DNA of 64,000 nt from Escherichia coli (GTDB lineage Bacteria > Pseudomonadota > Gammaproteobacteria > Enterobacterales > Enterobacteriaceae): assembly GCF_045037415.1 (NCBI RefSeq), contig NZ_CP173440.1; one strand, 5' to 3'. The notes beneath the pieces are model-generated. The model did no database searches and was not told the origin of the DNA. It worked only from the letters and a program-made list of their open reading frames with translations. Numbering within the stretch: the first letter of the stretch is position 1; each line of letters begins with the position of its first letter. Positions 22,264-58,827 of the stretch are shown one piece after another. The position numbers and the translations under genes are program-made.

Positions 22264-22329
22264 TTTGCTACATTAATAACAAATCGTTAATAATACGGTG
22301 TTATGTTAACGACACCAGCCGAGCCATAC

Positions 22330-23815: not shown

Positions 23816-23878
23816 ATATACCTGCCTGATCTGATATTTACTCTCATCCCTACCCTGCCCCCTGCCTGAGCCACCGCT

Positions 23879-24301: not shown

Positions 24302-24329
24302 GTCCTGTACCGATAAAATTGCGTAATGA

Positions 24330-24348
24330 AACGTTATAACATAACATT
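24330..24348. promoter_or_regulatory. Zur-box-like operator upstream of the dksA2-like operon
   Basis: AACGTTATAACATAACATT (reverse complement AATGTTATGTTATAACGTT), about 29 bp upstream of the start codon. Confidence 0.55.
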
Positions 24349-24371
24349 AACTGCCGCTGCAAAATAACCTG

Positions 24372-25571: not shown

Positions 25572-25668
25572 AGCATCCAGCCTTATGCCGCTAAACGTTA
25601 ATGCAATCAAGTTGCAATAATACCGGCTTCCTGCCAAAATTCAAATGACATGACTCGGAGGGGGAAAT

Positions 25669-26121: not shown

Positions 26122-26202
26122 TTTTTTTCTTATTCCGGACGACTGTTAATTAGCGCCAGGCGTGTTCGTGTGCTGCTATCTAAAAATAATGAGGTAAACG
26201 TA

Positions 26203-27585: not shown

Positions 27586-27620
27586 GTTGTCCCTCTGGAT
27601 GTAAAAAATTTCAATATCAA

Positions 27621-27639
27621 TTGTTATGTTATAACGTAA
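27621..27639. promoter_or_regulatory. Zur-box-like operator
   Basis: TTGTTATGTTATAACGTAA, 17 bp upstream of the flavoprotein start codon. Confidence 0.55.
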
Positions 27640-27655
27640 TGCAAAGGGTAATTTT

Positions 27656-28786
27656 ATGAACCAACCACGCGAAGTCGTTATTGTCGGTGCGGGTCCGGCC
27701 GGGGTGGGTATGGCGGCGCTTCTTCGTCGTAGTGCCATACAGGATATCCTGGTCGTTGACAGTCACGAAGTAGGTGCCTCCTTTATGCGCTGGCCGGAAG
27801 AAACCCGTTTTATTACTCCTTCTTTTTTTTCCAATCCGTTTGGACAACCAGACCTGAACTCTGTGACCCCTGACAGTTCATTGGCGCTTTTCTGCGGTGA
27901 AGAACATCCTGGGGGGAAAACTTATGCCAGTTACCTTAAGGCCGTACTGGATGAGTATCAGATACCCGTCATGGCTCCCGCCAGGATTGCAAAGGTTGCG
28001 TTGCTCAGTTCCGGTAATTTTATACTGATAACAGAAGCAGGAGAGAAGCTGGAAACACGCTCTTTAATATGGGCTACAGGCGAATTCCAGTTCCCAGACC
28101 GGCAGATTTTTCCTGGAGCAGATATTTGTTGCCATTACGGTGATGTGACCAGCTGGAAGGATTTCAGGAAAGGTGAATACATTGTTATAGGCGGCTATGA
28201 AAGCGCGGTGGATGCCGCTGTAAACCTGCTGGAAAATGGCTCATCGGTAAAAATGTTAACCCGCTCAGCCCCTTGGTCAACTAACCACATCAGCGATCCC
28301 AGTCTATCGCTTTCCCCTTATACCCGTGAGCGTTTGAACAGAGTGATGAATCACCGTCTTTTCGAAATTTATGAAGATGCGGATGTCTGTGAAGTAATCA
28401 GAATGCCCGGCCCGGGAAGTTCGTACAAAGTCCATACCACAAACGGACGCGCCTGGGCTACTGACGAGGTGCCTGTGCTTGCTACCGGCTTCCAGTGTGG
28501 CGGAGGAGCAAGGCAACTGGCTGCTTTTTTTGAATGGAATGATGATGGCTATCCGGTCTTAACGGACGAAGACTGCTCAACCCTTTTTCCTGGTTTGTAC
28601 CTTGTCGGCCCTCATGTGCGGCATGCCGGTAATATTTATTGCTTTATCTATAAGTTCCGTCAGCGCTTTCCCGTCGTGGCAGAAAGTATCACGCGTCATC
28701 TGGGCCTGTCCTCTGAAGGAGTACGGGACTGGTGGGTTCTGCCTTCAGAGCCTGACTGCTGTGCCGATGAGGACTGTGCGTGCTGA
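27656..28786 (+). CDS. FAD/NAD(P)-binding flavoprotein (flavin-monooxygenase or thioredoxin-reductase-like) with Cys-rich C-terminus
   Basis: VVIVGAGPAGVG FAD-binding fold, second GG…AVDAA dinucleotide motif, LATGFQ motif, C-terminal CCADEDCAC. Confidence 0.6.
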   Translation: MNQPREVVIVGAGPAGVGMAALLRRSAIQDILVVDSHEVGASFMRWPEETRFITPSFFSNPFGQPDLNSVTPDSSLALFCGEEHPGGKTYASYLKAVLDEYQIPVMAPARIAKVALLSSGNFILITEAGEKLETRSLIWATGEFQFPDRQIFPGADICCHYGDVTSWKDFRKGEYIVIGGYESAVDAAVNLLENGSSVKMLTRSAPWSTNHISDPSLSLSPYTRERLNRVMNHRLFEIYEDADVCEVIRMPGPGSSYKVHTTNGRAWATDEVPVLATGFQCGGGARQLAAFFEWNDDGYPVLTDEDCSTLFPGLYLVGPHVRHAGNIYCFIYKFRQRFPVVAESITRHLGLSSEGVRDWWVLPSEPDCCADEDCAC

Positions 28787-30447
28787 GGTCCGTGTTTATG
28801 CAATCATTCGTTTTAATGGGATTAGAAAGTGCAGGAAAATCTACCCTGTTTAATATCCTGACGGAAAGTGCTGCCAGTGATGAGCGTAATTTCAGGGGAT
28901 CGACCGTTGTATGTCGGGAAGGTCTCATTAATGATGCAGGGATCTGCCTGGTTGATACGCCAGGCATACGTTTTCAGAGCGACAGTGAAACCACAAAACT
29001 CGCCCTTGATGCGCTAAATCAGCATGATGGCATTCTGGTGGTTCTGCGGGCCACGCACGCTCAGCAGGAGTGGCAAACGCTCTGTCACCTCATACCGCCA
29101 CAGGCAAAACACGTTGTTATACTCCTGACCTTTGCTGATAAGATCAGAAAGGGCCTTCTGGAAGTGACTGAATACCTGAGTGAAACATCAGGTGCGCCGG
29201 TACTGGCAGTCAATGCCCGGGAAGCTGGCAGCAATGTTCGCCAGGGAATAGTGCAGTTGCTGTTGCAGGATAAACCTGCACCCTCCGCTGTCTCTTTACC
29301 CCGTCAAAAGATACCGGTAATTAATCTGCTGGCTGAATTTCCTCAACAAACGATATTTGAACATCGTTGGTGTGGAAAAGTTGCTGCAATAGTATGCCTT
29401 TTCCTGCTGTTTGCCGTTCCGGTATGGGGGGCATGGCTGCTGTCAGATTTTATTCAGCCTGTCATTGACAGTGCGGTTATTCAGCCGCTTAAGAATATAA
29501 CGACGAGCTGGCCCGACGTTCTGAAGACACTATTTGTCGGCAATTACGGTCTTTTTAGTCTGGGACTTTATTCGTTTGTATGGGCATTTCCTGTGGTGGT
29601 ACTGATAGGGTTGTCTCTTTCGCTGACTGACGACAGTGGACTTAAGGAAAGAATTACAGCGACGCTGGATCCCTGGTTGAGAAAACTCGGCCTCAGCGGT
29701 CAGGACCTTATTCCTGTATTAAGCGGTTTCGGCTGTAATGTCGTGGCGGTTTTTCAGAGCCGTTCGTGTTCGCGATGCACCCGGCATGCTTGTATAAGTA
29801 TGATTAGCTTTGGGTCCGCTTGCAGCTATCAGACGGGGGCGACGCTTTCTCTTTTTAATGCCGCCCATCAACCATGGCTCTTTATCCCCTATCTCAGTCT
29901 GCTGTTTTTCACAGGCGCAATACATACGCGCCTCTGGAACGGGTCGTTGAAGCCTGGCCAAAACCAGCGTCTGACAGAGATCACCTGGCTACAATGGCCA
30001 CGCTGGCGAAATGTGACATGGATGCTGAAAAATATCCTCCGTCAGTTCATTACGCAAGCCATGCCGTTATTCCTGATTATCTGCATTGTTGCGGGGATGC
30101 TTGATTACGCAGGGATCACTCGCTGGCTGAGTGAAACGACGGCACCTTTACTTCATCTTTTTAAACTGCCAGCAGAACTGATGCCCGGGATCATTTTTTC
30201 ACTGCTAAGGAAAGATGGTTTGATGGTGCTCAATCAGGATGGCGGCAGCTTAATACAGTCTCTCAGCACATCTCAGTTACTGCTACTTGTCTGGCTCGCC
30301 TCTACGTTGATGGCCTGCCTTGTCACGGTATTTACCATCGCCCGGGAAATAAACTGGCGGTTTGCAGCAGCAGTGGCGGGAAAACAGGTATTAAGTTCTC
30401 TGGTGGTGGCTCTGGTGATATCCCAGTTATTTATTCATGAGGCATAA
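28780..30447 (+). CDS. FeoB-family transporter with a divergent G-domain
   Basis: G1 GLESAGKSTLFN and G3 DTPG; membrane domain with LSGFGCNVVAV gate-like motif; shorter than canonical FeoB. Confidence 0.6.
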   Translation: MLRSVFMQSFVLMGLESAGKSTLFNILTESAASDERNFRGSTVVCREGLINDAGICLVDTPGIRFQSDSETTKLALDALNQHDGILVVLRATHAQQEWQTLCHLIPPQAKHVVILLTFADKIRKGLLEVTEYLSETSGAPVLAVNAREAGSNVRQGIVQLLLQDKPAPSAVSLPRQKIPVINLLAEFPQQTIFEHRWCGKVAAIVCLFLLFAVPVWGAWLLSDFIQPVIDSAVIQPLKNITTSWPDVLKTLFVGNYGLFSLGLYSFVWAFPVVVLIGLSLSLTDDSGLKERITATLDPWLRKLGLSGQDLIPVLSGFGCNVVAVFQSRSCSRCTRHACISMISFGSACSYQTGATLSLFNAAHQPWLFIPYLSLLFFTGAIHTRLWNGSLKPGQNQRLTEITWLQWPRWRNVTWMLKNILRQFITQAMPLFLIICIVAGMLDYAGITRWLSETTAPLLHLFKLPAELMPGIIFSLLRKDGLMVLNQDGGSLIQSLSTSQLLLLVWLASTLMACLVTVFTIAREINWRFAAAVAGKQVLSSLVVALVISQLFIHEA

Positions 30448-30449
30448 GT

Positions 30450-30656
30450 ATGATCCCCAAGACTTACCAGCAATGGTACCGGTGCATCACAGAAGAATGT
30501 GGAATTCCCTTGACGCAGGCATTTATTGCATCCCGTCTGGCAGTCCTTGAGTCCCAAGATCATCAGGAAACCAGACGTTTTGTCTCGCTATATGGGCAAC
30601 AACATCTGAATAGTGTTGTACAGTGGTTCAAAAAAGCTGGGGAAGAATTGTTGTAA
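30450..30656 (+). CDS. small hypothetical protein, translationally coupled to the FeoB-like gene
   Basis: 68-aa ORF starting 3 nt after the FeoB-like stop. Confidence 0.35.
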   Translation: MIPKTYQQWYRCITEECGIPLTQAFIASRLAVLESQDHQETRRFVSLYGQQHLNSVVQWFKKAGEELL

Positions 30657-30681
30657 ATCTGCCCCCTTTTCGCTTTCATAC

Positions 30682-30710
30682 GAAGGCACCCGACAAATGC
30701 GGGTGCCTTC
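30682..30710. terminator. perfect 11-bp stem hairpin between convergent genes
   Basis: GAAGGCACCCG-acaaatg-CGGGTGCCTTC. A near-identical hairpin recurs at 61555-61585. Confidence 0.4.
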
Positions 30711-30713
30711 GAT

Positions 30714-31937
30714 TCATTCTTCGAACCAGGGCTCAACAGGATCGGAATAATGCCGCCACTTTTGAGGCCCTTCTGCCATTTCTGCATCCGTTAACAGGGC
30801 GGAATCCAGTCTGTTGCGCAGTTCTGATTCATTCATATCCATTCCAATAAAAACGAGTTCCTGACGGGCATCACCAATGCCATCTATCCAGTTAGACATG
30901 ATGAACTTCAGTGACTCAGCATCCTCTGGCCAACGTCCTTTCGGCACACTAGCCCACCACATGCCCCCCAGCCCCTGGCGCGCAATGCCACCTGCCTGCG
31001 ACCATGAACCTGCGAATTCCGGACGGCTGGCCAGCCAGAAGTAACCTTTTGATCTGACGACTCCATCCAGCTCATTTTCCATCACCTGCCAGAAACGGGT
31101 CGGATGAAAAGGCCGGCGGGCGCGAAAGACAAAGCTGGTGATCCCATATTCTTCTGTCTCCGGCGTATGTTCGCCCCGGAGTTCTTTAAGCCAGCCGGGT
31201 GCCTGAGCGGCCTGCTCGAAATCAAACAGCCCGGTATTAAGTATGTTGCCCAGCGGAACCTGTCCAAACTGTGAAACAACGATTCTGGCCCGTGGATTAA
31301 GCGAACGTAAAATCGCCATCAGTTTTTCTTTTTGCGCTTCACTGATAAGGTCAACTTTATTAAGGACCAGCACATCACAGAATTCAATCTGATCGATCAG
31401 CAAGTCAACAACGCTCCTTTCATCACCTTCACCTAACGATTCTCCGCGTGACTGAATGCTGTCTTCCGAACCGTAGTCTTTCAGAAAATTGTACGCATCC
31501 ACCACAGTGACCATGGTGTCAAGGCGGGCCACCGTCGAAAGGCTTTCACCGTCATCGCCCGCAAAGGTAAATGTTTCAGCAACAGGCAGAGGCTCAGATA
31601 TACCGGTGGACTCAATGACAAGCTGATCAAAACGCCCTTCTTTTGCCAGACGATTAACTTCGAGAAGAAGATCTTCGCGCAATGTGCAGCAAATGCAACC
31701 GTTGCTCATTTCTACCAGTTTTTCATCAGTCCGGGAGAGTTCTGCACCACCTTCCCTCACAAGGGCAGCATCAATATTCACCTCAGACATATCATTAACA
31801 ATGACAGCAACACGACGGCCTTCCCGGTTGTTCAGAATATGGTTAAGCAGTGTCGTTTTCCCTGCTCCCAAAAATCCCGAAAGTACGGTAACCGGCAGGC
31901 GTTTATCGCCATGAAAATTTGCACTGACTTCGGACAT
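30714..31937 (-). CDS. COG0523 GTPase with canonical CxCC motif
   Basis: P-loop [11 protein letters not shown] and GCICCTL metal motif, followed by a CobW_C-like C-terminal domain. Confidence 0.8.
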
Positions 31938-31973
31938 TACCTTACATCTCCTCAGATATTCGTTGTGTTCGGA

Positions 31974-32381
31974 TTAACCAGGATCGTTGAGCACGGTTAG
32001 CTCATCGCCTTTAATGGCGTTGTAAAAACAACTCCGCCGACCTGTGTGGCAGGCTCCACCTTTTTGATCCACTAGCAGTAGCACCGCATCTCCGTCACAA
32101 TCCAGACGGATATCATGTACTTGCTGAACGCAGCCGGAGGTCTCACCTTTTCGCCAAAGGCATGATCGGGATCGCGACCAGTAACAGGCTCTGCCAGTCA
32201 ATAAGGTTTCATCAAGAGCCTGTTGATTCATCCAGGCAAGCATCAACACCTCTCCAGTGTCATATTGCTGTGCAATCGCAGCGATCAAACCATGAGAATC
32301 CCAGGGTATTGACGGCAGGATATCCTCAAGCTGAAACACTGCTCCTGCATGGGCTTTTTCCAGTAACAGAAACATTGGCAC
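31974..32381 (-). CDS. hisI: phosphoribosyl-AMP cyclohydrolase paralog (HisI-like)
   Basis: 135 aa with HisI-like core (…WSRSRS…[28 protein letters not shown]); Cys/His ligand positions appear retained. Confidence 0.65.
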
Positions 32382-32393
32382 CCCACCTTTTTG

Positions 32394-32411
32394 ATGTTAC
32401 GTTATAACATA
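32394..32411. promoter_or_regulatory. Zur-box-like operator
   Basis: ATGTTACGTTATAACATA, 13 bp upstream of the hisI-like start, in the divergent region with a Fur-family regulator gene. Confidence 0.55.
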
Positions 32412-32519
32412 TCAAACATAATTGCCAGTTATCACGATTTCACAGGCACTGTACTTCTTGGGTAACATCTGACCGGAAAAAGAAACAAAGCAAATGTGAT
32501 AGAGGCAGCAGGAGGCAAG

Positions 32520-33020
32520 ATGAATAACAAACTACATTCTGAATTGATTAAGAAAGCTATGTTCCCGGATCTAGGCTGTTCAGAATTTAGGGAACTGACT
32601 GCCCGTAAGGCGATGCGAATTACTCCGATGCGGATGATGGTGTATCACTTCATCAGGTGTGCTGAAGACAAAGGTATCAGTGCATACCAAATCCTTGACC
32701 AGTTAAAATCATATAACCCAAATGCAAAACCAACTACTGTTTATCGTACTCTGGATTATCTACAACAGGCTGGAGTCATTGTAAAAATAGAAAGCTGTAG
32801 CAAGTTTGTAAAAAAGAATAGCTTTCCCCATGAAGGATTAACACTTTTTATGATTTGTTCAAACTGCGGTACAATCATTCAGCATACAGACAGCAAAATA
32901 CAATATTACGTTGAGGATAAATCACATGAATATGGGTATATTATGCAAAGAAAGGACATAGAAATCAGTATAATTTGTCCCGGTTGTCAGGCTAATGAAA
33001 AAATGGCGCAATCTGGGTGA
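32520..33020 (+). CDS. second Fur-family regulator (low-GC, divergent from the hisI-COG0523 operon)
   Basis: Winged-helix region and CSNCG…CPGC structural-zinc-type motifs. Start set at MNNKLH. Confidence 0.6.
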   Translation: MNNKLHSELIKKAMFPDLGCSEFRELTARKAMRITPMRMMVYHFIRCAEDKGISAYQILDQLKSYNPNAKPTTVYRTLDYLQQAGVIVKIESCSKFVKKNSFPHEGLTLFMICSNCGTIIQHTDSKIQYYVEDKSHEYGYIMQRKDIEISIICPGCQANEKMAQSG

Positions 33021-35611: not shown

Positions 35612-36175
35612 TTGAAAACCTCATATTATGGCACACTGCCTGCGGTAGATAGTGCTAACGAAAAGCAGCCACTGATGATTGGCTCCCATATTGACACCGT
35701 TGTAAACGCCGGCGCTTTCGATGGTTGTTACGGTGTCCTGTCCGGCCTGGCTGTCGTCAGGGCTTTCAGAAAAGCCGGGATCAAACCTTCCCGCCCGATT
35801 ACTGTCGGCGCATTCACAAACGAAGAGGGTATCCGTTATCAACCCGATATGATGGGATCGCTCGTCTATGCAGGGGGGATCTCGCTGAAGAAAATCCTGG
35901 ACACTGTCGGCACTGATGGCACACGTCTGGGTGATGAGCTGCAGCGTATTGGCTATGCGGGAAACCTGGAGCCCGGCTCGATCGTCCCTCATGAATACAT
36001 TGAACTGCACATCGAACAGGGACCTGTTCTTGAAGCCGAAGGGATCCAGATCGGTGCTGTCGAAAATCTTCAGGGAATTTCCTGGCAGGAAATCACCATC
36101 AAAGGCACGGCAAACCATGCAGGCACCACGCCGACACGGCTACCCGTTCTTACGATCCGGCAGTCTAGGAAATGC
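35612..36175 (+). pseudogene. fragment of an M20-family amidohydrolase (allantoate/N-carbamoyl-amino-acid amidohydrolase-like)
   Basis: Internal region only (…GSHIDTVVNAGAFDGCYGV…GTANHAGTTP…); N- and C-termini are missing. Confidence 0.5.
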
Positions 36176-36533
36176 TTGAAAAACGGATGCGTGTTATCTG
36201 TAATTCTGTTTGCGCAATGCACGAAGCAGAATGTGAATTCATTTACACACATGAGTTTTCACCTACAGTCGATCATCCGCGGGAAACTGCATATGCAATT
36301 GACGCAGCGGTTCGCGTATTCGGCGAAAAAAATGTGGATTCCACGGTGACGTGTTCATACTCAAATCTCCTGCAATATGGGAGATTTGAGTATGGTTGTA
36401 CCTTGTGAGCGAACAGCGGGAATTCGCAAATGTTTCACATCTGATCAAGGCATTACTTAAAGGATGCTGTGGTAGCCAACGGGGAGCAGGTCAAAGCAAT
36501 TACAAATTGGTTTGAATTGCAACATCATGCAAA

Positions 36534-36553
36534 TAAATGTTATGTTATCACAT
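36534..36553. promoter_or_regulatory. Zur-box-like operator (one mismatch to the window consensus)
   Basis: AAATGTTATGTTATCACATT, about 25 bp upstream of the probable ATPase start. Confidence 0.45.
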
Positions 36554-36577
36554 TACTTAAGTGGCATATACAGTGAC

Positions 36578-37387
36578 ATGAACAACAATCTTCCTTATCC
36601 AATACCTGTGCTTGATGTTAAAAGCGTCAGCATTTCTACGGGCCATTCTGCTCTGGTTAGCGATGTCAGCTTTCGGCTCCAACAAGGCGAGCGGGTCTGT
36701 ATTATCGGCTCATCAGGGTCAGGTAAGTCTCTGACGGCAAAAGCCATTATAGGTACATTGTCTGCCGGGCTGTTATTACAAGGAAGCATTCGTATAAACG
36801 GTGCGGATGTCGTTGGCCTTCATCCCACCCGGCGCCCTCAGCATGCGCTGGTATCCGCCATCTTTCAGGACTCTTCCACCGCGCTGAACCCGCTGATGCC
36901 GGTGGGGCGACAGCTTGCTCTGGCGTTGAAAACAGGTGATAACGCGATGCTGGGCTCTTTGCTGGATGCGCTACAGCTCAGCGATATCCCTCAATTGCTC
37001 TCCCGCTACCCGGCAGAGCTTTCCGGTGGGCAGCGTCAGCGGATTTGCATCGCGCTGGCGTTGCTGGGGAATAATCGCCTGCTGGTTGCTGATGAACCGA
37101 CGACGGCACTGGATGTGATTAGCCAGCAGCAGGTTTTGCAGATATTAGTTCAGGGTTCCACGATGAGAGCTCCGCCTGCGTTGCTCTTCATCACACATGA
37201 TATTGCCGTTGCCACACAGTTGTGCCAGCGAGGTATCGTGGTGGAAAAAGGCAGGATTGTGGAGTCAGGCACAATGGACCAGCTCCTGAACGAGCCGGAG
37301 CATCCTTACACCCGCAAATTGGTACGGGCCGCGCGAGCCGCTGAACAGACGTTGTTAACACACACCCGTGAGGTGCTCGCCGGATGA
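36578..37387 (+). CDS. ABC transporter ATP-binding protein (Nik/Dpp/Opp-type, D-like)
   Basis: Walker A GSSGSGKS, signature LSGGQRQR, Walker B LLVADEPT. Confidence 0.8.
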   Translation: MNNNLPYPIPVLDVKSVSISTGHSALVSDVSFRLQQGERVCIIGSSGSGKSLTAKAIIGTLSAGLLLQGSIRINGADVVGLHPTRRPQHALVSAIFQDSSTALNPLMPVGRQLALALKTGDNAMLGSLLDALQLSDIPQLLSRYPAELSGGQRQRICIALALLGNNRLLVADEPTTALDVISQQQVLQILVQGSTMRAPPALLFITHDIAVATQLCQRGIVVEKGRIVESGTMDQLLNEPEHPYTRKLVRAARAAEQTLLTHTREVLAG

Positions 37388-38217
37388 GTATTCCCCTGCA
37401 GATGGCATCCGACTCCTTCATTCAGGTCGACAGGATTTCCCGCTACCGGAGTCACCCCGGACTCCCTTGGCAGAAGACCCTGCCAGTGAATGCCATTCTT
37501 AAAGATTTTTCGCTCACACTGCGTCAGCATGAGCGTGTTGGCCTGTTAGGATGTTCGGGCTGTGGAAAATCGACGTTACTGAAAGCTATCTTGGCCCTCG
37601 ACCCGGTAGATGACGGTGAGGTGTATTGTGATGGAAAGGTGGTCAGGCCCGGCTCTGCCCGAATATTGCGCTGGTATCGCCGCAGGGTTCAGTACCTTCC
37701 TCAGGAACCCGCCAGTACGTTGCCGCCGTCAATGCGTGTCAGAGAGATTCTCAACGAGCCGCTAAGACATTTAGGCTGCAACCGTGATGCGTCACCTAAT
37801 CTTGCCGCCGCGCTTGAACAGGTCGAACTCAGCGCAAAAGTTCTCGATCAGCGTGCAGGCTCGCTTTCAGGGGGGCAGGCTCAGCGCGTTGCGCTGGCAA
37901 GAGCGCTGATCATACAGCCCGATTTTTTGCTGGCCGATGAGCCGGTCAGCGGGCTGGATCTTCCCCTGCGTGAGCAAATCAAATTGCTACTTTTGCGTAT
38001 AGCAGAAGAAAACCGCATGGGGCTGCTGATTGTCTCTCATGACATTTCTATGCTGGCAGGGTTGTGCGACAGAACGCTGGTCATGGTGGCTGGAAAAATC
38101 ATTGAAGATCGCCCGACGTTTGAAATGTTGCATTTACCTCATCATCCGCATACGCGTCAGCTTCTGGACGCGGTACCGGCTCTTGTAACTCATGCCCCGT
38201 CGCTGGCACGTGGCTGA
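37384..38217 (+). CDS. ABC transporter ATP-binding protein (F-like)
   Basis: GCSGCGKST, LSGGQAQR, LLADEP; ATGA overlap with the upstream gene. Confidence 0.8.
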   Translation: MSIPLQMASDSFIQVDRISRYRSHPGLPWQKTLPVNAILKDFSLTLRQHERVGLLGCSGCGKSTLLKAILALDPVDDGEVYCDGKVVRPGSARILRWYRRRVQYLPQEPASTLPPSMRVREILNEPLRHLGCNRDASPNLAAALEQVELSAKVLDQRAGSLSGGQAQRVALARALIIQPDFLLADEPVSGLDLPLREQIKLLLLRIAEENRMGLLIVSHDISMLAGLCDRTLVMVAGKIIEDRPTFEMLHLPHHPHTRQLLDAVPALVTHAPSLARG

Positions 38218-38243
38218 ATACACTTTTAACGAATAATCTCATT

Positions 38244-39488
38244 ATGACTGAATTGATTTCAGGGAAGAAAGCGAACACCTCCCCTTCATTGCTGCTTGTC
38301 AGCCAGTTTATTTTTAATACCGGTTTTTATGCGGTAGTGCCTTTTCTCGCTATTTTTCTGCGCGATGACATGCTGTTGTCCGGTGCCGCGATTGGCCTGG
38401 TGCTCGGTCTCAGGACCTTCTCGCAGCAGGGTATGTTTCTGGTTGGAGGGGCACTGACTGACAGGTTTGGCGGACGTGCCATCATTCTGTGCGGCTGCGT
38501 GGTCCGAATCAGTGGCTACCTGCTGCTCGCCATCAGCGCCTCGTTATGGGGCGTTATTCTGGGAGCCTGCCTGACAGGGATTGGCGGTGCGCTCTTCTCG
38601 CCTGCAATCGAGTCGCTGATGGCTCAGGCGGGGACGCAAAGTGAAAGGGAAGGCAAGCGCAGCCGTTCAGAATGGTTCGCGTTGTTCTCTGTTTGTGGTG
38701 AGCTGGGTTCAGTCATCGGTCCTTTGCTGGGAGCATTGCTGACAGGGTACAGCTTTCAGAGTGTGGCCCTTGGCGGGGCAGGCGTCTTCTTGTTTGCGCT
38801 GATTATGCTCTATTTCATGCTACCGACAGGCACCAGCCATCATGGCACGCTTAAAATTTCCCCTTGGTGGACGGCATTTCACCAGCGCCGCTTTGTTGCC
38901 TTTATCGTTGCTTACAGCGCGTATTTATTCAGCTATAACCAGCTCTATCTGGCGTTACCCGTTGAACTACGCCGCTCCGGGGGAAGTGAGGCCGAGCTCG
39001 GCCCGCTGTTTATGCTGGCCTCAGTCATGATCATTTTCCTGCAATTGCCTCTGGCACGGTTTGCCCGAAAACGCGGCGCATCACAGATTTTGCCTGTGGG
39101 ATTTTTGCTGCTGGCACTGTCATTCTTTAGCGTCGCTCTGTTCGCCGGTACCACAGCGCCAGACACTCTGTGGCGGCTGCTTCCCGCGGTTTCACTAGTC
39201 ACGCTGCTGACGCTTGGCCAGATGCTTATTGTGCCTGTGGGCATGGACATGATCCCTGTTTTTGCCCGGGATAAAAATCTTGGGGCGCACTACGGAGCAC
39301 TCTCCTCCATGGGCGGCGCCACCGTGCTGGCCGGCAATTTTGCCCTCGGCGGGCTGCTGGATCGCGCACTCATCCCTTCTTCGCAGGCTTTTGTGCCATG
39401 GCTACTTATGGGCTGCATTCCGTTATGCAGCGCGGTTGCCATGCTGTTTATTTTACGATCGTTTAAAACGACCTCTGGAAATCAATAA
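38244..39488 (+). CDS. MFS transporter embedded in the ABC operon
   Basis: About 12 predicted TM helices; MFS-like signature GGALTDRFGGR. Confidence 0.65.
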   Translation: MTELISGKKANTSPSLLLVSQFIFNTGFYAVVPFLAIFLRDDMLLSGAAIGLVLGLRTFSQQGMFLVGGALTDRFGGRAIILCGCVVRISGYLLLAISASLWGVILGACLTGIGGALFSPAIESLMAQAGTQSEREGKRSRSEWFALFSVCGELGSVIGPLLGALLTGYSFQSVALGGAGVFLFALIMLYFMLPTGTSHHGTLKISPWWTAFHQRRFVAFIVAYSAYLFSYNQLYLALPVELRRSGGSEAELGPLFMLASVMIIFLQLPLARFARKRGASQILPVGFLLLALSFFSVALFAGTTAPDTLWRLLPAVSLVTLLTLGQMLIVPVGMDMIPVFARDKNLGAHYGALSSMGGATVLAGNFALGGLLDRALIPSSQAFVPWLLMGCIPLCSAVAMLFILRSFKTTSGNQ

Positions 39489-39498
39489 GGACAGATAA

Positions 39499-41025
39499 AT
39501 GAATACGGGTAAATCATTATGGCCTGTTTATGGGCTCTTGTCAGCCACCTTATTACTGACTGGCTGCTTTAATGAACCGCAGGACGAATCGGTCAGCGCC
39601 AGCGAGGGCAGAATTAAAGTGGCGCACCTTCTTCCACCGCGTTCCGGCCTGACGCCGCTCAGTGATGATGCATTTAAATTATCGCGCTGGAGCACGGCTG
39701 AAACCCTGGTCGTACTCAACAGCGCCAGTGATGCACAGCCTGCGCTGGCAACCAGCTGGGAGCAAATCAATGACACAACCTGGCGTTTTGAATTGCGCCC
39801 GAACGTCAAGTTTCATGACAATACCGATCTAACCGCGCAGTCGGTGGTTAACGCGCTGAGCGTTGCCGCTAGCGCCAAACCAAAGCCCCGTATTCTGGAT
39901 GGCATAACGCTCACAGCCAAAGTAGACGGCGATAATGCCGTACTGATCACGACTGAAAAACGCGATCCTCTTCTGCCTCAGCGTCTTTCCAGCCCTCAGC
40001 TGGCCATTTTGTCGCTGAATGCTTACAAAGAAAATGGCGTGGTGAACCCAGTTAATGCAGGAACCGGGCCATTCATTCTGCGCAGCGTGAATGGCACCAG
40101 CAGTGCCGCGCTCGATCGCTTTGATGGCTACTGGGGCGAGAAGGCGAAAGCTAGCGGTATTGACGCAAGCTTTGTTCCGGACGGGGCCGCGCGCGCAGCC
40201 GCATTACGTACTGGCACGGCGGATATCATTGAGGCAATTCCTGTGTCTCAGGCCCCGCTTCTGGATCAATCACTGGTTCATGAAGTCCCGATGCCGAGAA
40301 CCAATACGCTTTATCTCAATACGGCGCAGGGCGTGATGAAAGATCCAGCTATGCGAGCCGCAGTCCGTGACGTGATTAATCGTCAGCAGATTGTTGATAA
40401 TGTCTATGAGAAACGTGCCGACGTCGCGCAGGGGCTTCTGGGGCCAGCCTTGCCATGGGCCGCACCACTGCGCAAACCGGTGACCAACCCCGTTGCAGCG
40501 GGAAAACCAGACGGGGCCACAATCACTCTGGCAACGTTCAGCGATCGTGCGGAATTGCCTGAAGTCGCGGTCTATCTTGCACAGCAGCTCATTGCCGCCG
40601 GGTTTACCGTGAAACAAGTGGTCCGCGAGTATTCGCAGATTGAAGCTGATGCGCTGGCCGGAAAGTTTGATGCCTTTATTCTGTCGCGTGCAACCGTGCT
40701 GGATTCCGGTGACCCGGTTGCCTACATGTACAGCGATTTCGCCTGCGAAGGGTCGTTCAATATATCCCAGCTGTGCCGCCCGGAAATTGATGCAGCGCTG
40801 AAAAAAGCCCGTGAAACGCCAGCGGGTGAAACCCGACGTCAGGCCATTATGGACGCTGAAAACATGATCCTTGCCAGTGATGCTGCGATCCCAATACTAC
40901 ATGAGCGCGTCATTCAGGGAGAAAGTGCGGTAGTGAAAAATGCGCTCCGTGACCCTCGCGAGCGCACGCTCATCGACAGCCAGACCCAATTAGTCGCTGG
41001 CGAACATACTACTGCTGCGCAGTAA
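39499..41025 (+). CDS. family-5 (NikA/OppA/CntA-like) substrate-binding lipoprotein
   Basis: Lipoprotein signal (LLLTGC); size and composition of family-5 solute-binding proteins. Confidence 0.7.
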   Translation: MNTGKSLWPVYGLLSATLLLTGCFNEPQDESVSASEGRIKVAHLLPPRSGLTPLSDDAFKLSRWSTAETLVVLNSASDAQPALATSWEQINDTTWRFELRPNVKFHDNTDLTAQSVVNALSVAASAKPKPRILDGITLTAKVDGDNAVLITTEKRDPLLPQRLSSPQLAILSLNAYKENGVVNPVNAGTGPFILRSVNGTSSAALDRFDGYWGEKAKASGIDASFVPDGAARAAALRTGTADIIEAIPVSQAPLLDQSLVHEVPMPRTNTLYLNTAQGVMKDPAMRAAVRDVINRQQIVDNVYEKRADVAQGLLGPALPWAAPLRKPVTNPVAAGKPDGATITLATFSDRAELPEVAVYLAQQLIAAGFTVKQVVREYSQIEADALAGKFDAFILSRATVLDSGDPVAYMYSDFACEGSFNISQLCRPEIDAALKKARETPAGETRRQAIMDAENMILASDAAIPILHERVIQGESAVVKNALRDPRERTLIDSQTQLVAGEHTTAAQ

Positions 41026-41043
41026 AACAGGGGTTATTGATCA

Positions 41044-42819
41044 ATGAGCGAATCGCTGTACTGCCGGACCTGCGCCAGGATCCATCGGGCAGGTAACCTG
41101 CCAAAAGGCTTAGTGGCAACGTTGCTGTCGCGGATAATTACGCTGACCGGTATTGTCGTGCTGATCGGGATGCTGCCTTGGGTATCGGGCCAGGATCCCG
41201 CCATGGCGCTGCTGAGAGCGCGTTCTGCCGAACAGGAAGCAACCCCGGAAGCATTAGCAGCGATTCGCCAGTCGCTGGGGTTCGATCAGGGCCCTGTGCA
41301 ACTCCTGCTGCACTGGCTCAGCGGCCTCTTGCAGGGGGATGCAGGTAACTCTTGGATATCAGGGCGCCCGGTGCTGCCTGACATGATCCAGGCAGCCCAG
41401 GTGTCACTGACGCTGATGCTGATGTCCGCCGTGGTGGCACTGCTGCTGGCGGCGATGATTTGCCTGCCGACATTCCGACGAGGCCTGCAGGGGCGGTCGT
41501 TTCGTTCGACGGGCTTTTTCGCGTCAGTATTCACCGCATTACCTGAATTTCTTCTGGCGTCATTCTTACTGGTCGTTGGGGCCGTCTGGCTGGAGTGGTT
41601 TCCTCCTTACGGCTGGAACGGCCTGCACTATGCGGTGCTGCCCGCGCTGGCAATGGGGATCCCGGCAGGTGGCTATCTGGGGCGGATATTCTCGGATGCT
41701 TTAGCGGCAACCTTTAGTGAAAACTGGATAATCACCTGGACCGTCTCCGGGATATCGCGTTGGCACATTACCTGCGCGGTACTTAAGCGAACGCTCTCCA
41801 CCGTTATGCCGTTAATTGGCCTGGTTTTGGTGTCATTGACGGGCAGTGCAGTGGCCGTGGAAAAGGTCTTCGCCATTCCGGGGCTCGGCAGGGCAACGCT
41901 CGGTGCCGTAGTTGCACAGGATCTTCCGGCGCTGCAAATGGGCGTGCTCTTCCTGCTCATCATTGCATTTATGTTCGGAATGCTGTGTGCGGGGATCAGA
42001 TACCTCATTCTGGGGCGGGCGTTACGCACGTCCTCTCTGCCGGTCACCAATGAACCTGACGGAAAAAGCGGGAAATTGTCGCTGTTGCTTCCGTTCGCCT
42101 GTGGCGTTGCGTTGGTCGTGCTTCTGCTTATTGGTCTGCCCCGTGATCCTTACTCGTCTGAGTTTATGCGACTGGCTCATCCTTCCTTTTCGCTGCCCTT
42201 TGGGGCCGATGCCATGGGGCGTGATTTGCTGGCCAGAGTGGCCTACGGCACAGTGCATACCTGCATGCTGGCGCTGATGGTGTCGCTTATTTGTCTGCTA
42301 CTGGGGCTGGTTATTGGTCTTTTCCCCAGGGTATTTGTGGGACCGACAGAGATGGCAAATGCGCTGCCTCCGGTGATTGCGGGCTTACTGGTGGTTTCCA
42401 TCAGTGGCCCCGGCAGTTTAGGTGCGGCCATTGCGATTGCAGCAGTAGGCTGGGCGCCTCTTGCCACACATACCGCGGCGCTGGCGACAGAAATTCGCGC
42501 CAGACCTTATATCAACATGCTTCCTGTTCTGGGGGTTGGCTGGCTACGTCAGAATCTGTTTTACATTTTTCCGGCACTAATTGGCCCTCTCTTTCGTCAT
42601 GCTATGCTGCGCTTACCGGGGATCGCCCTAGCTTTGGCTTCACTGGGTTTTCTCGGGCTGGGCGCATCACCGCCGGAGCCGGAATGGGGAAGGGTACTTG
42701 CGGAAGGAATGCCTTATCTGGAGCGCGCCTATTGGGTCGTTCTGGCACCTGCAGTCGCCCTTGCCGTTTTGTCGGTGATGGGCGTGAGTCTGGCCGGTCT
42801 GACGGGTCAAAAAAAGTAA
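41044..42819 (+). CDS. fused ABC permease (NikB/NikC-like double transmembrane domain)
   Basis: 591 aa with two permease-like halves. Confidence 0.65.
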   Translation: MSESLYCRTCARIHRAGNLPKGLVATLLSRIITLTGIVVLIGMLPWVSGQDPAMALLRARSAEQEATPEALAAIRQSLGFDQGPVQLLLHWLSGLLQGDAGNSWISGRPVLPDMIQAAQVSLTLMLMSAVVALLLAAMICLPTFRRGLQGRSFRSTGFFASVFTALPEFLLASFLLVVGAVWLEWFPPYGWNGLHYAVLPALAMGIPAGGYLGRIFSDALAATFSENWIITWTVSGISRWHITCAVLKRTLSTVMPLIGLVLVSLTGSAVAVEKVFAIPGLGRATLGAVVAQDLPALQMGVLFLLIIAFMFGMLCAGIRYLILGRALRTSSLPVTNEPDGKSGKLSLLLPFACGVALVVLLLIGLPRDPYSSEFMRLAHPSFSLPFGADAMGRDLLARVAYGTVHTCMLALMVSLICLLLGLVIGLFPRVFVGPTEMANALPPVIAGLLVVSISGPGSLGAAIAIAAVGWAPLATHTAALATEIRARPYINMLPVLGVGWLRQNLFYIFPALIGPLFRHAMLRLPGIALALASLGFLGLGASPPEPEWGRVLAEGMPYLERAYWVVLAPAVALAVLSVMGVSLAGLTGQKK

Positions 42820-43004
42820 AAGCGTTCCATACGTTGCTATCACTATGACTGCAATGTCGAACACCTTTAAACACGTGATTCTGTTACCAGGATTAAGTCG
42901 AGATTATTTTGAAATAACTCTGCACACTTTTTCACCGAAATTATGCTGGTGCCCATCGTCGGGCGAAGTTAGACTGAAATGTTGAGTTAAACAAGGGGGC
43001 AAAA

Positions 43005-43235
43005 ATGAAAGTGTTAAGTATTGTCGGGGCAACGCTGTTGGTCACGTCATTCCATGCTGCCGCATTTGTTTCTGTATCGCCGGTGCCTGCGGGGCAAAAT
43101 GCGAACGTCAGTCCTGCTGCAAACAACGGACACGCTATTCCTTCTGAAGCGGTCAATGCTGACATAACAAAGATCATTCCGATCGCTGGCTGTCACTGCG
43201 CTTTCTGCAACTCGTTGCGCGCCGCTAACCTTTGA
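43005..43235 (+). CDS. small secreted protein with C-terminal CHCAFC motif
   Basis: AAGGGGG ribosome-binding site; signal peptide MKVLSIVGATLLVTSFHAAAF; His/Cys cluster near the C-terminus. Confidence 0.4.
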   Translation: MKVLSIVGATLLVTSFHAAAFVSVSPVPAGQNANVSPAANNGHAIPSEAVNADITKIIPIAGCHCAFCNSLRAANL

Positions 43236-43819
43236 CCCCTTCTTCAGGCCTGGGTTTATCAACATTCAGGCCCTGAGTCCGCTCCTGACGTGCCGTAGGC
43301 CATGAGTATGATGGCCTGCTCCTGCCTTTCACCTGTACCCCACCTTACCGCCCAGTCGTTTATTTCACCCTTTACGGGCTGACTTGCCGCGAAAAAGCTT
43401 CCCGTACATTCCATTAACACATCCCACGCAGCGTAGATTCAAAGAGAACTCTGTAGGAGATGTTAACAATGCCATATAAGAAAGCCTCTGTATTTGAAGA
43501 TCCCCGTTTACCTGTCCCCGCTCTCTGATTTCACCCAGTCGGCGGATAAAGACTGCACGCGCAAGGGCATTGCGGGCCTCACCTTTATTCAACCCTGCCT
43601 GTACGCGTCGACGCAGGGAAGGCTCCCGGAACCAGTAATGGCCGTGAAGCGACTGTGCAATGCGCTGTTTGGCAGAACGGGCAGCCAGTGGCTGATTGTG
43701 GAAGTTTTTGGGGAGAAAGGGCGACAGCACCGCAGTACGGACAGTAACCCGGAGGCCGTTGAAAAGATGGTCAGGCATGTGATAAACCCAGTAACACCTG
43801 ATAATCTGGAGGATACAGG

Positions 43820-44299
43820 ATGAAAAAATATAAAGTTGTCACTGCAGGACTTCTCCTGGCAGGCCTTATTGCTACCGGTATCACCTGGGCAGCAGGCCAG
43901 TCCAACGGAGAGAAGAATGCGCAATGGCGAAAACCCCTGAACGAGAGCATCACGCTTCGGTTCGGTGAAAAAGCCTATAGCGTGGATTTGTATGATAATC
44001 CCACGACTCACGACCTGCTAAAAAAGCTGCCCCTTAACGTTCAGGCCACGGATTACCCGGGGTATGACGAGAAAGTGTTGCGCTTAGCAACACCATTATC
44101 GATGGAAAATGCGCCGCGGGGTGATGAACCAGAAATTCCTGAAGTGGGCTACTATGCTCCCGGGCAGTGGATTGCTGTTTACTTCGGTCCTATTGGTTAC
44201 TGGTCTGGTAAGGTGCCGCTTGGCCGTATTCATGCTTCAGTCGATGAAATCAGTGCCATTCCGGAGAATACGCCAGTCACCATTGAGAAAGCGAAATGA
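43820..44299 (+). CDS. secreted hypothetical protein (possibly cyclophilin-like fold)
   Basis: Signal peptide; stop overlaps the start of the downstream reductase gene. Fold assignment is tentative. Confidence 0.35.
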
Positions 44300-46779: not shown

Positions 46780-47178
46780 TTAGATCAGGAAATCTTCGAG
46801 AGTTTTTCCTGAATCCAACTGAGCTTTAATTGGTGCCGGGGTACGACCCTGACCTGTCCAAGTTTTTTGCTCACCAGCTTCGTCTATATAAGCATATTTC
46901 GCCGGACGAGGTTCACGCTTTTTTCGTACTTTAATGTTAACGGCCGCGTCCATCAGTTCATTCGGATCTATACCATCAGCGATTATCATTTCCCGGTACT
47001 GAGAGAGTTTTTCTAAACGCTCTCGATTAGCTGCTTCGGCCGCCTTTTCTTCTTCACTGCGTTCAGTGACTACAACAGTGAACTTTTCTAATACTTCTTC
47101 GAGCACTTCTAATGGCAGCTCTCGTGCCTGAGCGCGAAGTGTACGGATGTTATTGAGAACCTGTAATGTCTCGCTCAT
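46780..47178 (-). CDS. H-NS-family nucleoid-associated protein
   Basis: [20 protein letters not shown]…[16 protein letters not shown]…TWTGQGRTP matches H-NS/StpA along its length. Confidence 0.85.
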
Positions 47179-47514
47179 AGTTACCTCTTTAAGCACATTG
47201 TTATGCAGTTACATAACAACATTAAATTAATTAAAAATTTTCAGCAAGTGGCTTCGCAAGTTAAATTATTTCAATCGAAAAACATCTTAAAAAGGAATAG
47301 CTCTCATGCTGATTCTATCTTCCTTAGACAGGATACTTCCCAGTTTGTAAATTCACAATCTTGAAAAAAACACCTCAAAAAATCTGTCTCTTTGGTTATG
47401 AATTAATCGTTGAATTCAATGTAAAGAGGTGTTGTAATTGTAAAAGTCACCAGGCAAATAATCAATACAATTTAGTTCGATATAGTGAAGATCTAAATGT
47501 CATTCCTTATGTAT

Positions 47515-57543: not shown

Positions 57544-57561
57544 TTGTTATGTTATAACATT
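57544..57561. promoter_or_regulatory. Zur-box-like operator
   Basis: TTGTTATGTTATAACATT, the best match to the window consensus. Confidence 0.55.
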
Positions 57562-57565
57562 AAAT

Positions 57566-57817
57566 TAGCAATATTCTCAGCCAGCAGCACGGCCTGTGGG
57601 GGGCGGTTATTGAGAACGAATTCGGTGAAATCTGTATAGATGATGCATTGGTTATCAATGCAGATGAAGAAGTCTTCGAGATGAATAATGGCTGCATCTG
57701 CTGCACGGTGCGAGGAGATTTGATTCATATCCTGAGTCGTCTGATGTACCGCCGCGATAAATTTGACCGTATTCTGATCGAATTCCACCGGGATGGCCAA
57801 TCTACTGAGTGAAGCAA
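57566..57817 (+). pseudogene. COG0523 GTPase fragment (CxCC region only)
   Basis: Unannotated plus-strand frame reads …VIENEFGEICIDDALV…EEVFEMNNGCICCTVRGDL… The P-loop N-terminus and the C-terminal domain are absent. Confidence 0.5.
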
Positions 57818-57999
57818 ATGAAGAGAGAGCCGCTAACGATCCTGAATGGTTTTCTTAGTCCTAGTAAAAACATGCGGTTAAAAATTTGTTAATGCAGACA
57901 CCTCAACCACAATTTCGATGTGCGTCATCGTGAACGATTTGAGCGGACAGGATGTCGGCGGCGTCCTGATTGCCAGTATAGAAATCAAGAAGGAACACC

Positions 58000-58827
58000 A
58001 TGAAGCGCAATACCGTAAGTAATCTGACAGAAAAAGATGATTTTGATACGCTGGAAAGTATTCTCAGCGTTAATATTCATTCTCTGTTGCGGCCAGACGG
58101 CGGGACGTTGCTTTCTGACGTCCATTTTGCGGTCAAAGCAGGAGAATGTCTGGCCATTATCGGGCCTAACGGCAGCGGTAAAACTTCCCTCGTGAGAGCG
58201 ATTAGTCAGGAACTGACCCATCTAAAGGGGGACATTCTTCTGCGGGGCCGTTCTATGTCTGCTTTATCCCGTCAACAGCGAGCCCGGCTGGTTGCTGTTT
58301 TGGCCCAGAATGATACACCTGATACGAGATTATCCCTTGAGGATTATGTAGCGCTGGGGCGTATCCCTCATGCCGGGGATGTACCGCGTAATGTACATGA
58401 CGCGATTGTAGCAAATGCCATTAAAGAAACCGGATTACAACGGCTACGCAGGCGGTCACTTTTATCGCTTTCCGGCGGCGAAAGACAACGAGCGGCGCTG
58501 GCACGGGTACTGGCACAGACGCCCGACCTGGTATTGCTTGATGAACCCACCAATCATCTCGATCCTCCCGGGCGCGAGGAACTGCTTTCCCTTGTAAAAA
58601 ACAAGGGGATTGCCGTCGTGGCGGTGTTGCACGATCTGACACTGACAGAATCATTTGCTGACCGTGTTCTCCTCTTGTCGCAGGGGCAATCAGTGATCTG
58701 TGACACACCGGAGAAGGTATTGGTATCAGAATACCTTTATCCCGTTTTTGGCTTGACCAGTTTTACCGTACCGCATCCCCATACAGGAAAGGCGTTGCGT
58801 ATTTTTGAAGTTCCGCATTATGTATAA
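58000..58827 (+). CDS. ABC transporter ATP-binding protein (FecE/FhuC/BtuD-like)
   Basis: GPNGSGKTS, LSGGERQR, LLDEPT. Confidence 0.8.
   Translation: MKRNTVSNLTEKDDFDTLESILSVNIHSLLRPDGGTLLSDVHFAVKAGECLAIIGPNGSGKTSLVRAISQELTHLKGDILLRGRSMSALSRQQRARLVAVLAQNDTPDTRLSLEDYVALGRIPHAGDVPRNVHDAIVANAIKETGLQRLRRRSLLSLSGGERQRAALARVLAQTPDLVLLDEPTNHLDPPGREELLSLVKNKGIAVVAVLHDLTLTESFADRVLLLSQGQSVICDTPEKVLVSEYLYPVFGLTSFTVPHPHTGKALRIFEVPHYV

Follow-up and report, generated by a model that had tools for sequence, protein, structure and literature searches.

A small exported cysteine-motif peptide, likely linked to the zinc-starvation response, is encoded on pLVPK-type virulence plasmids

The 64,000-nt window analyzed here (Escherichia coli, RefSeq assembly GCF_045037415.1, contig NZ_CP173440.1) represents a pLVPK-type Klebsiella pneumoniae virulence plasmid, with identical sequence in pLVPK itself (NC_005249.1). 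Our subject is an open reading frame (ORF) of 76 amino acids at positions 43005–43235 on the plus strand, annotated in RefSeq as a 'hypothetical protein' (WP_011154571.1). The ORF begins with ATG, translates as MKVLSIVGATLLVTSFHAAAFVSVSPVPAGQNANVSPAANNGHAIPSEAVNADITKIIPIAGCHCAFCNSLRAANL, and is preceded, 5 nt upstream of the start codon, by the Shine-Dalgarno sequence AAGGGGG (42993–42999, plus strand), as read from the sequence; the good ribosome-binding site (RBS) reported in a preliminary description of this DNA is thus present, and a purine-rich Shine-Dalgarno sequence recurs at the equivalent place in all homologs. That description, made from the letters of the window alone, had regarded the product as a secreted periplasmic metal-binding peptide or a precursor of a modified peptide, largely on account of its position behind a putative metal importer.

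Two features of the ORF carry little weight by themselves. Since 111 ORFs of at least 40 amino acids overlap a 14-kb stretch, the size of the 76-aa ORF alone is not above chance, and the 499 plasmids in PLSDB that contain it are uninformative on selection because they are clonal, every copy being at least 99% identical. More distant comparisons are decisive. From Serratia bockelmannii, K. variicola, Cedecea spp. and Enterobacter spp., a search of 5.8 billion proteins recovered 14 full-length homologs that are 66–88% identical, providing the conservation in related genomes whose absence, along with that of expression, the preliminary description had named as refuting it. In a codon-level comparison of seven copies from different contexts, the synonymous sites are saturated (pS 0.63–0.80), dN is 0.04–0.27, and dN/dS, where dS is computable and with one close pair excepted, is 0.04–0.15, with the differences distributed over the three codon positions as 254/297/882. 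Because the reading frame is conserved over saturated synonymous divergence at such dN/dS values, these alignments identify the ORF as a genuine gene under strong purifying selection in this frame. That the gene is real and that its product is exported are conclusions in which we place high confidence.

The encoded protein consists of three parts with distinct modes of evolution. The N-terminal segment MKVLSIVGATLLVTSFHAAA (residues 1–20, nucleotides 43005–43064, plus strand) is a predicted Sec-type signal peptide, with MK as its n-region, a hydrophobic core of 14 residues and a c-region of the A-x-A type that ends at the predicted cleavage site HAAA|FVS. In all subfamilies, including those with 32–41% identity, position −1 is always Ala, position −3 is A, C, V, T or S, and position +1 is an invariant Phe; the earlier assignment of the product as a small secreted protein with a signal peptide is well borne out by this pattern, from which cleavage by signal peptidase after Ala20 would be expected. 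The signal segment is also, unusually, the most constrained part of the protein at the amino acid level (pN/pS 0.077). The N-terminal part of the mature peptide (43065–43178, plus strand) comprises a variable linker rich in Ser, Pro, Asn and Ala (residues 24–41), which evolves under relaxed constraint (pN/pS 0.48), followed by a GHAIPSE motif that contains His43; the middle segment is constrained (0.18), and the alignment shows GHAIPSE to be conserved in the close clade of three-Cys enterobacterial members, with His43 invariant there.

The C-terminal part contains the family signature P-x-x-G-C-x-C-x-F-C-x-x-L-R (residues 59–72, including Cys63, Cys65 and Cys68; nucleotides 43179–43220, plus strand). 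Together with the residues before it, this segment reads IIPIAGC-x-C-x-F-C-x-x-L-R, the ORF itself having GCHCAFC. The residues that are invariant across the family, in subfamilies down to 32% identity, are M1, K2, A20, F21, P59, G62, C63, C65, F67, C68 and R72. The terminal His/Cys cluster pointed out in the preliminary description therefore holds up with respect to the three cysteines, but not the histidine of the CHC triplet, which is confined to the pLVPK-proximal clade and is replaced by Asn, Gln, Ser or Val in most homologs. An AlphaFold2 (AF2) model built on a 19-sequence alignment has a mean predicted local distance difference test score (pLDDT) of 52.9, with values below 50 at residues 22–46 and only the signature segment, including a helix at residues 66–75, reaching about 70; according to this model, the mature peptide is largely disordered, without an autonomous fold. 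No family match was obtained in Pfam (E<=0.01 for the ORF and E<=1 for the remote homologs), NCBIfam or PADLOC, no match was found in PDB by either profile or motif search, and no paper in the literature mentions WP_011154571 or a Zur-regulated peptide of such kind.

The conservation extends beyond the coding sequence. Between the stop codon of a fused ABC (ATP-binding cassette) permease gene (42819) and the start of the ORF lie 185 nt, and this interval holds a conserved region (42907–42980, plus strand) that consists of a box, TTTTGAAATAACTCTGCACACTTTTTCA, containing a −35-like hexamer, followed by CTGGTG...TTAGACTGA. The region is kept among copies that share no common flanking genes, namely those of pLVPK, K. 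variicola, Serratia, an IncFII plasmid, the locus L009 and Cedecea, and it probably contains the gene's own promoter and 5′ untranslated region (UTR). A sigma-70 promoter scan around the ORF made no relevant call and found no consensus pair in this region; PhoB, CpxR, MerR-type, sigma-E and Fur sites were considered as identities of the box and rejected upon inspection of the patterns by eye. Downstream, a GC-rich, terminator-like stem-loop (43244–43276, plus strand), which folds with a 12-bp stem and has no U-tract here, begins 9 nt after the stop codon. A hairpin of differing sequence occupies the same place in nearly all family members and is followed by a U-tract in the loci L006 and L017; the scan for intrinsic terminators around the ORF called nothing relevant, and there was no Rfam match at E<=1 within 42600–43850. 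In copies with different neighbors, DNA conservation runs from approximately 100–125 nt upstream of the ATG to the stem-loop after the stop codon. Homology to the K. variicola island breaks off just 3′ of the hairpin, and a Tn3-family transposase fragment (43458–43688, minus strand; a RefSeq pseudogene) closes the conserved region downstream. Judging from these boundaries, the peptide gene is a self-contained cassette that is mobile between contexts.

The family to which this cassette belongs appears small. An exhaustive profile search of 1.84 billion representative sequences yielded only 12 matches. The remote small homologs (76–85 aa) come from Yokenella (P0022), a Klebsiella mobile element (P0026), the Serratia marcescens complex (P0027) and a metagenomic enterobacterial contig (P0029), and a scan of one genome per species added further Serratia spp. 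and Mangrovibacter. On the strength of these searches, the family is narrow, belongs to Enterobacterales and is undescribed. A planctomycete match (L031), which lacks a signal peptide and has a different Cys pattern, was rejected as spurious, and the large repeat proteins P0023 and P0024 were discarded as low-complexity matches to the linker and signal region. Among the metagenomic sequences, two Asn-rich proteins of approximately 610–630 aa (P0028 and P0030), eukaryote-like in composition and encoded on contigs of about 2 kb, have a ubiquitin-like N-terminus, no Pfam match, and four to five repeats of P-[IL]-P-G-C-N-C-P-K-C-T-x-L-R, a near-copy of the C-terminal mini-motif of the peptide; this motif may be convergent or may represent an unrecognized small Cys module.

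The genomic contexts of the close subfamily fall into four types. In pLVPK, K. variicola and S. bockelmannii, the gene follows the same five-gene transporter operon. In Cedecea, Enterobacter spp. and Enterobacteriaceae RIT693, it stands alone in variable chromosomal regions, the Cedecea and Enterobacter copies having no transporter within 10 kb. A TacAT module and a ScsC/DsbA-like gene flank it on the IncFII plasmid, and at L009 it lies 5 kb from a Zur-boxed znuABC-like operon. Thus, homologs next to transporters, which the preliminary description had proposed to look for, do occur in K. variicola and S. bockelmannii, but not in Cedecea, Enterobacter or the IncFII plasmid, and linkage to a transporter was rejected as a family rule, being clade-specific only; a Serratia binding protein encoded beside P0027 is merely 24% identical to that of pLVPK and is absent from most Serratia loci. 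The ScsC/DsbA-like gene of the IncFII plasmid (L007/L008, 10293–11075), which encodes a periplasmic thiol-disulfide oxidoreductase, is convergent with the peptide cassette, and thioredoxin-fold and DsbA-family genes are present in the window as well (approximately 5834–7982 in the coordinates of the reference record), where a redox partner is possible. S. bockelmannii holds both subfamilies: a three-Cys copy (L006) located after the transporter operon on an 8-kb contig, and a chromosomal, Zur-boxed four-Cys copy (L025) beside an AlaX-like tRNA-editing gene and a LysR regulator; the paralogs may serve different functions.

The operon upstream of the peptide gene (36578–42819, plus strand) encompasses five genes which, by Pfam and NCBIfam matches, encode two ABC ATPases, a major facilitator superfamily (MFS) transporter, an SBP_bac_5 binding protein and a fused double permease. 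The same gene order, with 81–90% identity, is found in K. variicola and Serratia, in each of which the small gene follows after 168–169 nt, and no strong terminator separates the operon from the small gene. The best NCBIfam matches are the S. aureus NikA/Opp5A, Opp1B/Opp2B and NikB/C families, all below the curated cut-offs (193 bits against a cut-off of 600 for NikA/Opp5A); CntA and CntC match more weakly, with 61.6 bits against 800 and 49.7 against 440. Taken together with the Zur box described below, these sub-threshold matches make it plausible that the operon encodes a Nik/Cnt-like importer of a metal or metal chelate along with an exporter, as the preliminary description had supposed in regard to the importer. 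Similarly to the staphylopine/Cnt and Nik importers, the operon combines an SBP_bac_5 protein with Opp-type permeases and ATPases; it further resembles Cnt in containing an MFS exporter gene (cntE in Cnt), here under predicted Zur control. Unlike those systems, to which its matches fall far short of the cut-offs, it encodes the permease as a single fused protein, and only here is the operon followed by a gene for a small secreted peptide. Neither the operon nor the window-equivalent plasmid stretch has genes annotated for CntL/CntM-type metallophore synthesis, no dedicated profile search having been made. Just 5′ of the operon, after an IS630 remnant, lies a fragment of an M20/M25/M40 metallo-hydrolase gene (35612–36349; pseudogene).

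A Zur box, TGTTATGTTATCACATTACT (36538–36557), precedes the operon, 26–40 nt before the start of the ATPase gene at 36578. This box was recognized by its pattern and by its score of 24.3 bits on a position weight matrix (PWM) whose training sites coincide with the published pLVPK Zur sites and on which true boxes score 24–32; the background rate of such boxes is approximately 0.0008 per kb, and the window contains 10 Zur-box-like palindromes vs. 1.8 expected. Orthologous boxes precede the operon in K. variicola (L004, 3537) and Serratia (L006, 1103). Given the box at 36538 and its retention in orthologs, the importer is predicted to be controlled by Zur, the regulator of the zinc-starvation response. 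Moreover, the complete Zur island that the window contains at 15789–33020 is also where the operon and the peptide gene are situated in K. variicola. A Zur-regulated cluster on pLVPK was flagged previously, with sites upstream of hisI2-yciC and dksA2-folE2-cam (Haas et al., 2009; PMC2770081), and these two sites are identical to the boxes at 32395 and 24327 of the window.

The distant homologs also link the peptide to the zinc response. A dksA2-folE2-gammaCA-queD-thrS2-X-pyrC2-hemB2 operon ends with P0029, which lies 64 nt beyond hemB2 and is convergent with cobW, with a Fur-family gene and Zur boxes beside it. Each of the homologs from the Serratia marcescens complex has a Zur box of 13.4–21.5 bits approximately 40 nt upstream of the ATG, overlapping the −10 element of a TTGGCA-N15/16-TATAAC promoter; in most of the 20-kb Serratia loci this is the sole Zur box, one locus having a second, distant match. 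The Mangrovibacter homolog, located between dksA2 and cobW/zigA/hisI2, has a 20.2-bit box 33–52 nt upstream. We therefore consider it likely that the peptide family is linked to the zinc-starvation response. The metal connection proposed in the preliminary description is accordingly supported, by the repeated association with Zur-regulon genes and by the Zur boxes of these distant homologs; the position beside a transporter, from which it had been drawn, does not hold across the family. In every one of the Serratia loci L024–L029 and L015, a gene for a 209-aa AlaXM-like alanyl-tRNA editing domain lies convergent to the Zur-boxed peptide gene; AlaXM-like proteins are of a zinc-dependent type, and the pairing may be another link to zinc.

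Based on these observations, we tentatively propose that the peptide is a Zur-regulon-linked exported component that binds zinc in the periplasm and helps to capture it or hand it off to importers, a statement that, taken as a whole, we hold at somewhat less than even confidence. Under this proposal, the pLVPK copy, which stands behind the Zur-boxed operon within the Zur island of the plasmid, would probably be expressed both from its own conserved promoter region and by read-through from that operon. The product would be exported by Sec and cut after Ala20, yielding a largely disordered periplasmic peptide of about 56 residues, the working end of which would be the conserved C-terminal signature. 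There, the three invariant thiolates, along with a fourth ligand, would form a site for Zn(II) or another thiophilic divalent metal, the fourth ligand being His43 in the pLVPK clade and an extra Cys in other members. Indeed, the three-Cys members (the pLVPK clade and Mangrovibacter) retain the conserved His. In the Yokenella member, which has Gln at the position of His43, a fourth Cys directly follows Cys68; in the Serratia, P0026 and P0029 subfamilies, the fourth Cys is found eight residues upstream. A tetrahedral metal site accounts better for three fixed thiolates with a wandering fourth ligand than do structural disulfides, a poor fit because of the odd number of cysteines in an exported peptide, and the predicted disorder fits a peptide that becomes ordered upon ligand binding. 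For direct metal binding by the peptide, we see the case as nearly evenly balanced. By analogy with ZinT, the peptide might then collect scarce zinc in the periplasm for delivery to either the adjacent Nik/Cnt-like system or ZnuABC; a specific hand-off to the adjacent transporter, or import by it, appears unlikely. A still bolder version, in which the peptide is a 'periplasmic zincophore', that is, an unmodified ribosomal peptide whose Cys3(+His) tail chelates zinc at very high affinity and whose complex is imported whole or stripped by the adjacent binding protein, is improbable in our estimate; if true, it would place a metallophore pathway devoid of biosynthetic enzymes on a hypervirulence plasmid.

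Several observations weigh against this proposal. In none of five contexts does the pLVPK-subfamily cassette itself contain a Zur box (scores <=5.2), so that zinc control would need read-through from the Zur-boxed operon, and no Zur box occurs within 20 kb of the Cedecea and Enterobacter copies, which makes zinc control of the pLVPK subfamily indirect at best; for the pLVPK copy itself, such control is an extrapolation. Candidates for a Zur box directly upstream of the pLVPK copy, namely the half-site-like GAAATGTT (42975) and the box at 42907, failed, with a best PWM score of −0.6. No zinc context was found for the Klebsiella mobile-element subfamily (P0026). The pattern of the fourth ligand is based on only about six subfamilies, and the His43 column holds Gln or Tyr in the four-Cys members P0022, P0026 and P0029. 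Furthermore, thiolate metal sites are unusual in the oxidizing periplasm, where DsbA could simply oxidize the cysteines; binding, the identity of the metal and its transfer to a transporter are all deduced. Finally, some plasmid copies are broken: a frameshift leaves truncated products of only 47–53 aa (P0017–P0020), and NZ_CP031258.1 (K. quasipneumoniae) has a 1-nt indel in the ORF, which implies that the gene is dispensable in some hosts and not maintained in every one.

Among the competing explanations, the strongest, although we deem it unlikely, is that the exported peptide, or its uncleaved, N-terminally anchored form, is a small periplasmic or membrane-associated regulator that carries no metal and uses its Cys motif to modulate the activity of a transporter, sensor kinase or envelope enzyme, in a manner similar to the action of MgrB on PhoQ. 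The exceptional constraint on the N-terminal hydrophobic region, unusual for a mere export signal, would be readily accommodated by such a role, as would the self-contained cassette that moves among contexts, the disordered mature part with a short conserved C-terminal helix, and the presence of envelope enzymes (M14 peptidase, DUF1460) in Zur islands. However, the −3/−1 pattern, along with a Lys within the hydrophobic segment of the Serratia and Mangrovibacter members, favors a cleaved signal over a membrane anchor, no partner gene is conserved across contexts, and the invariant cysteines with a wandering fourth ligand are more typical of a metal site. A reading of the ORF as non-functional, a chance frame or a remnant hitch-hiking beside the Tn3 fragment, would appeal to the frequency of random ORFs of this length, to the near-identity of the plasmid copies, which are silent on selection, and to the few frameshifted copies; it is effectively refuted by the full-length conservation at saturated synonymous divergence described above, by the conservation of the RBS, upstream box and post-stop hairpin in unrelated contexts, and by the remote homologs with Zur-boxed promoters of their own, and we give it virtually no credence.

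The cysteines invite two further interpretations. Heat-stable enterotoxin precursors are plasmid- or transposon-borne proteins of approximately 72 aa, with six Cys in STa and four in STb, and the peptide could by analogy be the pre-pro-form of a disulfide-stabilized secreted toxin, signal or antimicrobial. The two share a size of some 72–76 aa and an organization in which a signal is followed by a relaxed, variable pro-region and a conserved Cys-containing C-terminus of about 20 residues; the four Cys of the remote homologs could form two disulfides, the locations of the gene include a virulence plasmid, an IncFII plasmid and a mobile element of Klebsiella, and the IncFII copy adjoins the ScsC/DsbA-like oxidoreductase gene. 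Nevertheless, the peptide differs from STa and STb in having three cysteines, an odd number, in the pLVPK clade and Mangrovibacter, in showing no similarity to enterotoxin or bacteriocin families in Pfam, NCBIfam or PDB, and in its zinc-regulon link, for the recurrent Zur boxes and Zur-island contexts would be left unexplained; no route across the outer membrane is linked to it, and it occurs in non-pathogens and in environmental and insect-associated Cedecea, Enterobacter and Serratia, all of which renders this possibility rather remote. Less probable still is the second option of the preliminary description, a peptide synthesized on the ribosome and modified after translation (RiPP) whose cysteines are enzymatically modified before Sec export, yielding a bufferin-like metallophore. 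A Sec signal and conserved cysteines in a small precursor are indeed the bufferin layout (PMC11626156), strong conservation of the N-terminal region is typical of leader peptides, and the regulon is metal-related. This interpretation fails at its defining point because no maturase is linked and no precursor family matches: in approximately eight contexts, none of the adjacent genes encodes an MNIO/DUF692, DUF2063, radical-SAM, YcaO, lanthionine synthetase or other maturase, several copies stand by themselves amid unrelated housekeeping genes, and Pfam gives no match to DUF2282 or other precursor families, although a maturase encoded in trans is conceivable.

Comparison with characterized systems helps to place the proposed periplasmic zinc peptide. 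ZinT (YodA) is a folded, lipocalin-like, Zur-regulated periplasmic protein of about 200 aa that binds zinc mainly through His. The peptide resembles ZinT in signal-peptide-dependent export to the periplasm, in being a member or neighbor of the Zur regulon and in the proposed capture of scarce zinc in support of an ABC importer, and differs from it in being approximately 56 aa long, predicted to be disordered and Cys-based, with no Zur box proper to the pLVPK copy; sequence searches of Pfam, NCBIfam and PDB detected no homology to the lipocalin-like domain of ZinT, and the AF2 model is disordered. Bufferins (BufA) are Sec-exported RiPP metallophores of the DUF2282/BUF families, small folded proteins that are induced by copper, protect against it and buffer its excess; for the conversion of their cysteines to 5-thiooxazoles, they require an MNIO (DUF692) enzyme and a DUF2063 partner encoded in the same operon (PMC11626156). 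Common to both are a metal-binding role in the periplasm (proposed here), a metal-responsive regulon and the precursor layout, the peptide having the signal-peptide pattern and three invariant cysteines; unlike bufferins, it is disordered in the model and associated with a zinc-starvation regulon, as judged by the Zur boxes, rather than with copper excess. The bufferin precursor families DUF2282 and BUF_6/12Cys gave no Pfam match, and MNIO (DUF692) and DUF2063 are absent from the Pfam lists of neighbors of L002–L018 and from the RefSeq annotation of the plasmid. The redox-switch domain of Hsp33 and metallothionein-like CxCxxC sites are cytoplasmic and belong to larger domains or contain many more cysteines. 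Their closely spaced CxC and CxxC thiolates, which a fourth Cys or His can complete to a tetrahedral Zn site, parallel those of the peptide, which differs in having a single merged C-x-C-x-x-C, in being exported and in showing no homology to them in PDB searches. Thus, the peptide is closest in its proposed mode of working to ZinT-type accessories and in kind to Sec-exported Cys-peptide metallophores, and is a member of neither group.

The gene names used here follow the annotated record NZ_CP083992.1, from which the window is offset by about 5 nt before approximately 30.7 kb and differs at the 3′ end, and the coordinates of the island genes are those of the window's own ORF list. The Zur island consists of hemB2 (15789–16811, minus strand), pyrC2 (16875–18221, minus strand), genes for an M14 peptidase, a thrS fragment, a DUF1460 protein and a gamma-carbonic anhydrase, which are listed between pyrC2 and folE2, folE2 (22880–23815, minus strand), dksA2 (23879–24301, minus strand), cobW (24372–25637, minus strand), a gene for a Fur-family regulator (25669–26121), cysS2 (26170–27585), genes for a FAD oxidoreductase and a FeoB-like protein, listed between cysS2 and zigA, zigA (30714–31937, minus strand), hisI2 (31974–32381, minus strand) and a gene for a Zur-like regulator (32520–33020). 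One of the two Fur-family regulators of the island is best matched by Zur, below the cut-off. Both hemB2 and cysS2 are intact in the window and disrupted in NZ_CP083992.1, and the island is partly decayed and rearranged in comparison with that of K. variicola (L004). Its strong Zur boxes lie at 24327, 27622 and 32395, and the list of Haas et al. (2009) contains just two of them. A second family member following hemB2, as in L017, was sought in the window and is absent, an insertion sequence (IS) fragment being found there instead.

Two additional sites lie outside the island. A Zur box of 27.8 bits, TGTTATGTTATAACATTAAA (57545–57564), located just after an IS5 copy, precedes a fragment encoding a CobW-like N-terminus (57648–57812) and an ABC ATPase gene (58000–58827), and the stretch 57545–58827 looks like a second, IS-truncated zinc-regulated unit. 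The near-palindrome TGTTATGCAGTTACATAACA (47199–47218), which scores 15.2 bits on the Zur PWM, lies directly 5′ of an H-NS-family gene (46780–47196, minus strand) and is a candidate for either a weak Zur site or an operator bound by some other regulator.

For Klebsiella, the withholding of zinc by the host (calprotectin) is a major obstacle. The pLVPK-type plasmid defines hypervirulent strains, and its Zur island has received almost no experimental attention. The present analysis adds to the zinc-starvation response of several Enterobacterales a likely and hitherto undescribed component, a tiny exported thiolate peptide, which in Serratia and Mangrovibacter has its own predicted Zur promoter. 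Should the peptide not bind zinc, it would be a conserved small protein, and the gain would be confined to better annotation. If it does, it would represent a periplasmic carrier of metal that is based on Cys and requires no modifying enzymes, a candidate fitness factor on a plasmid of clinical importance and a simple counterpart to bufferins and ZinT.

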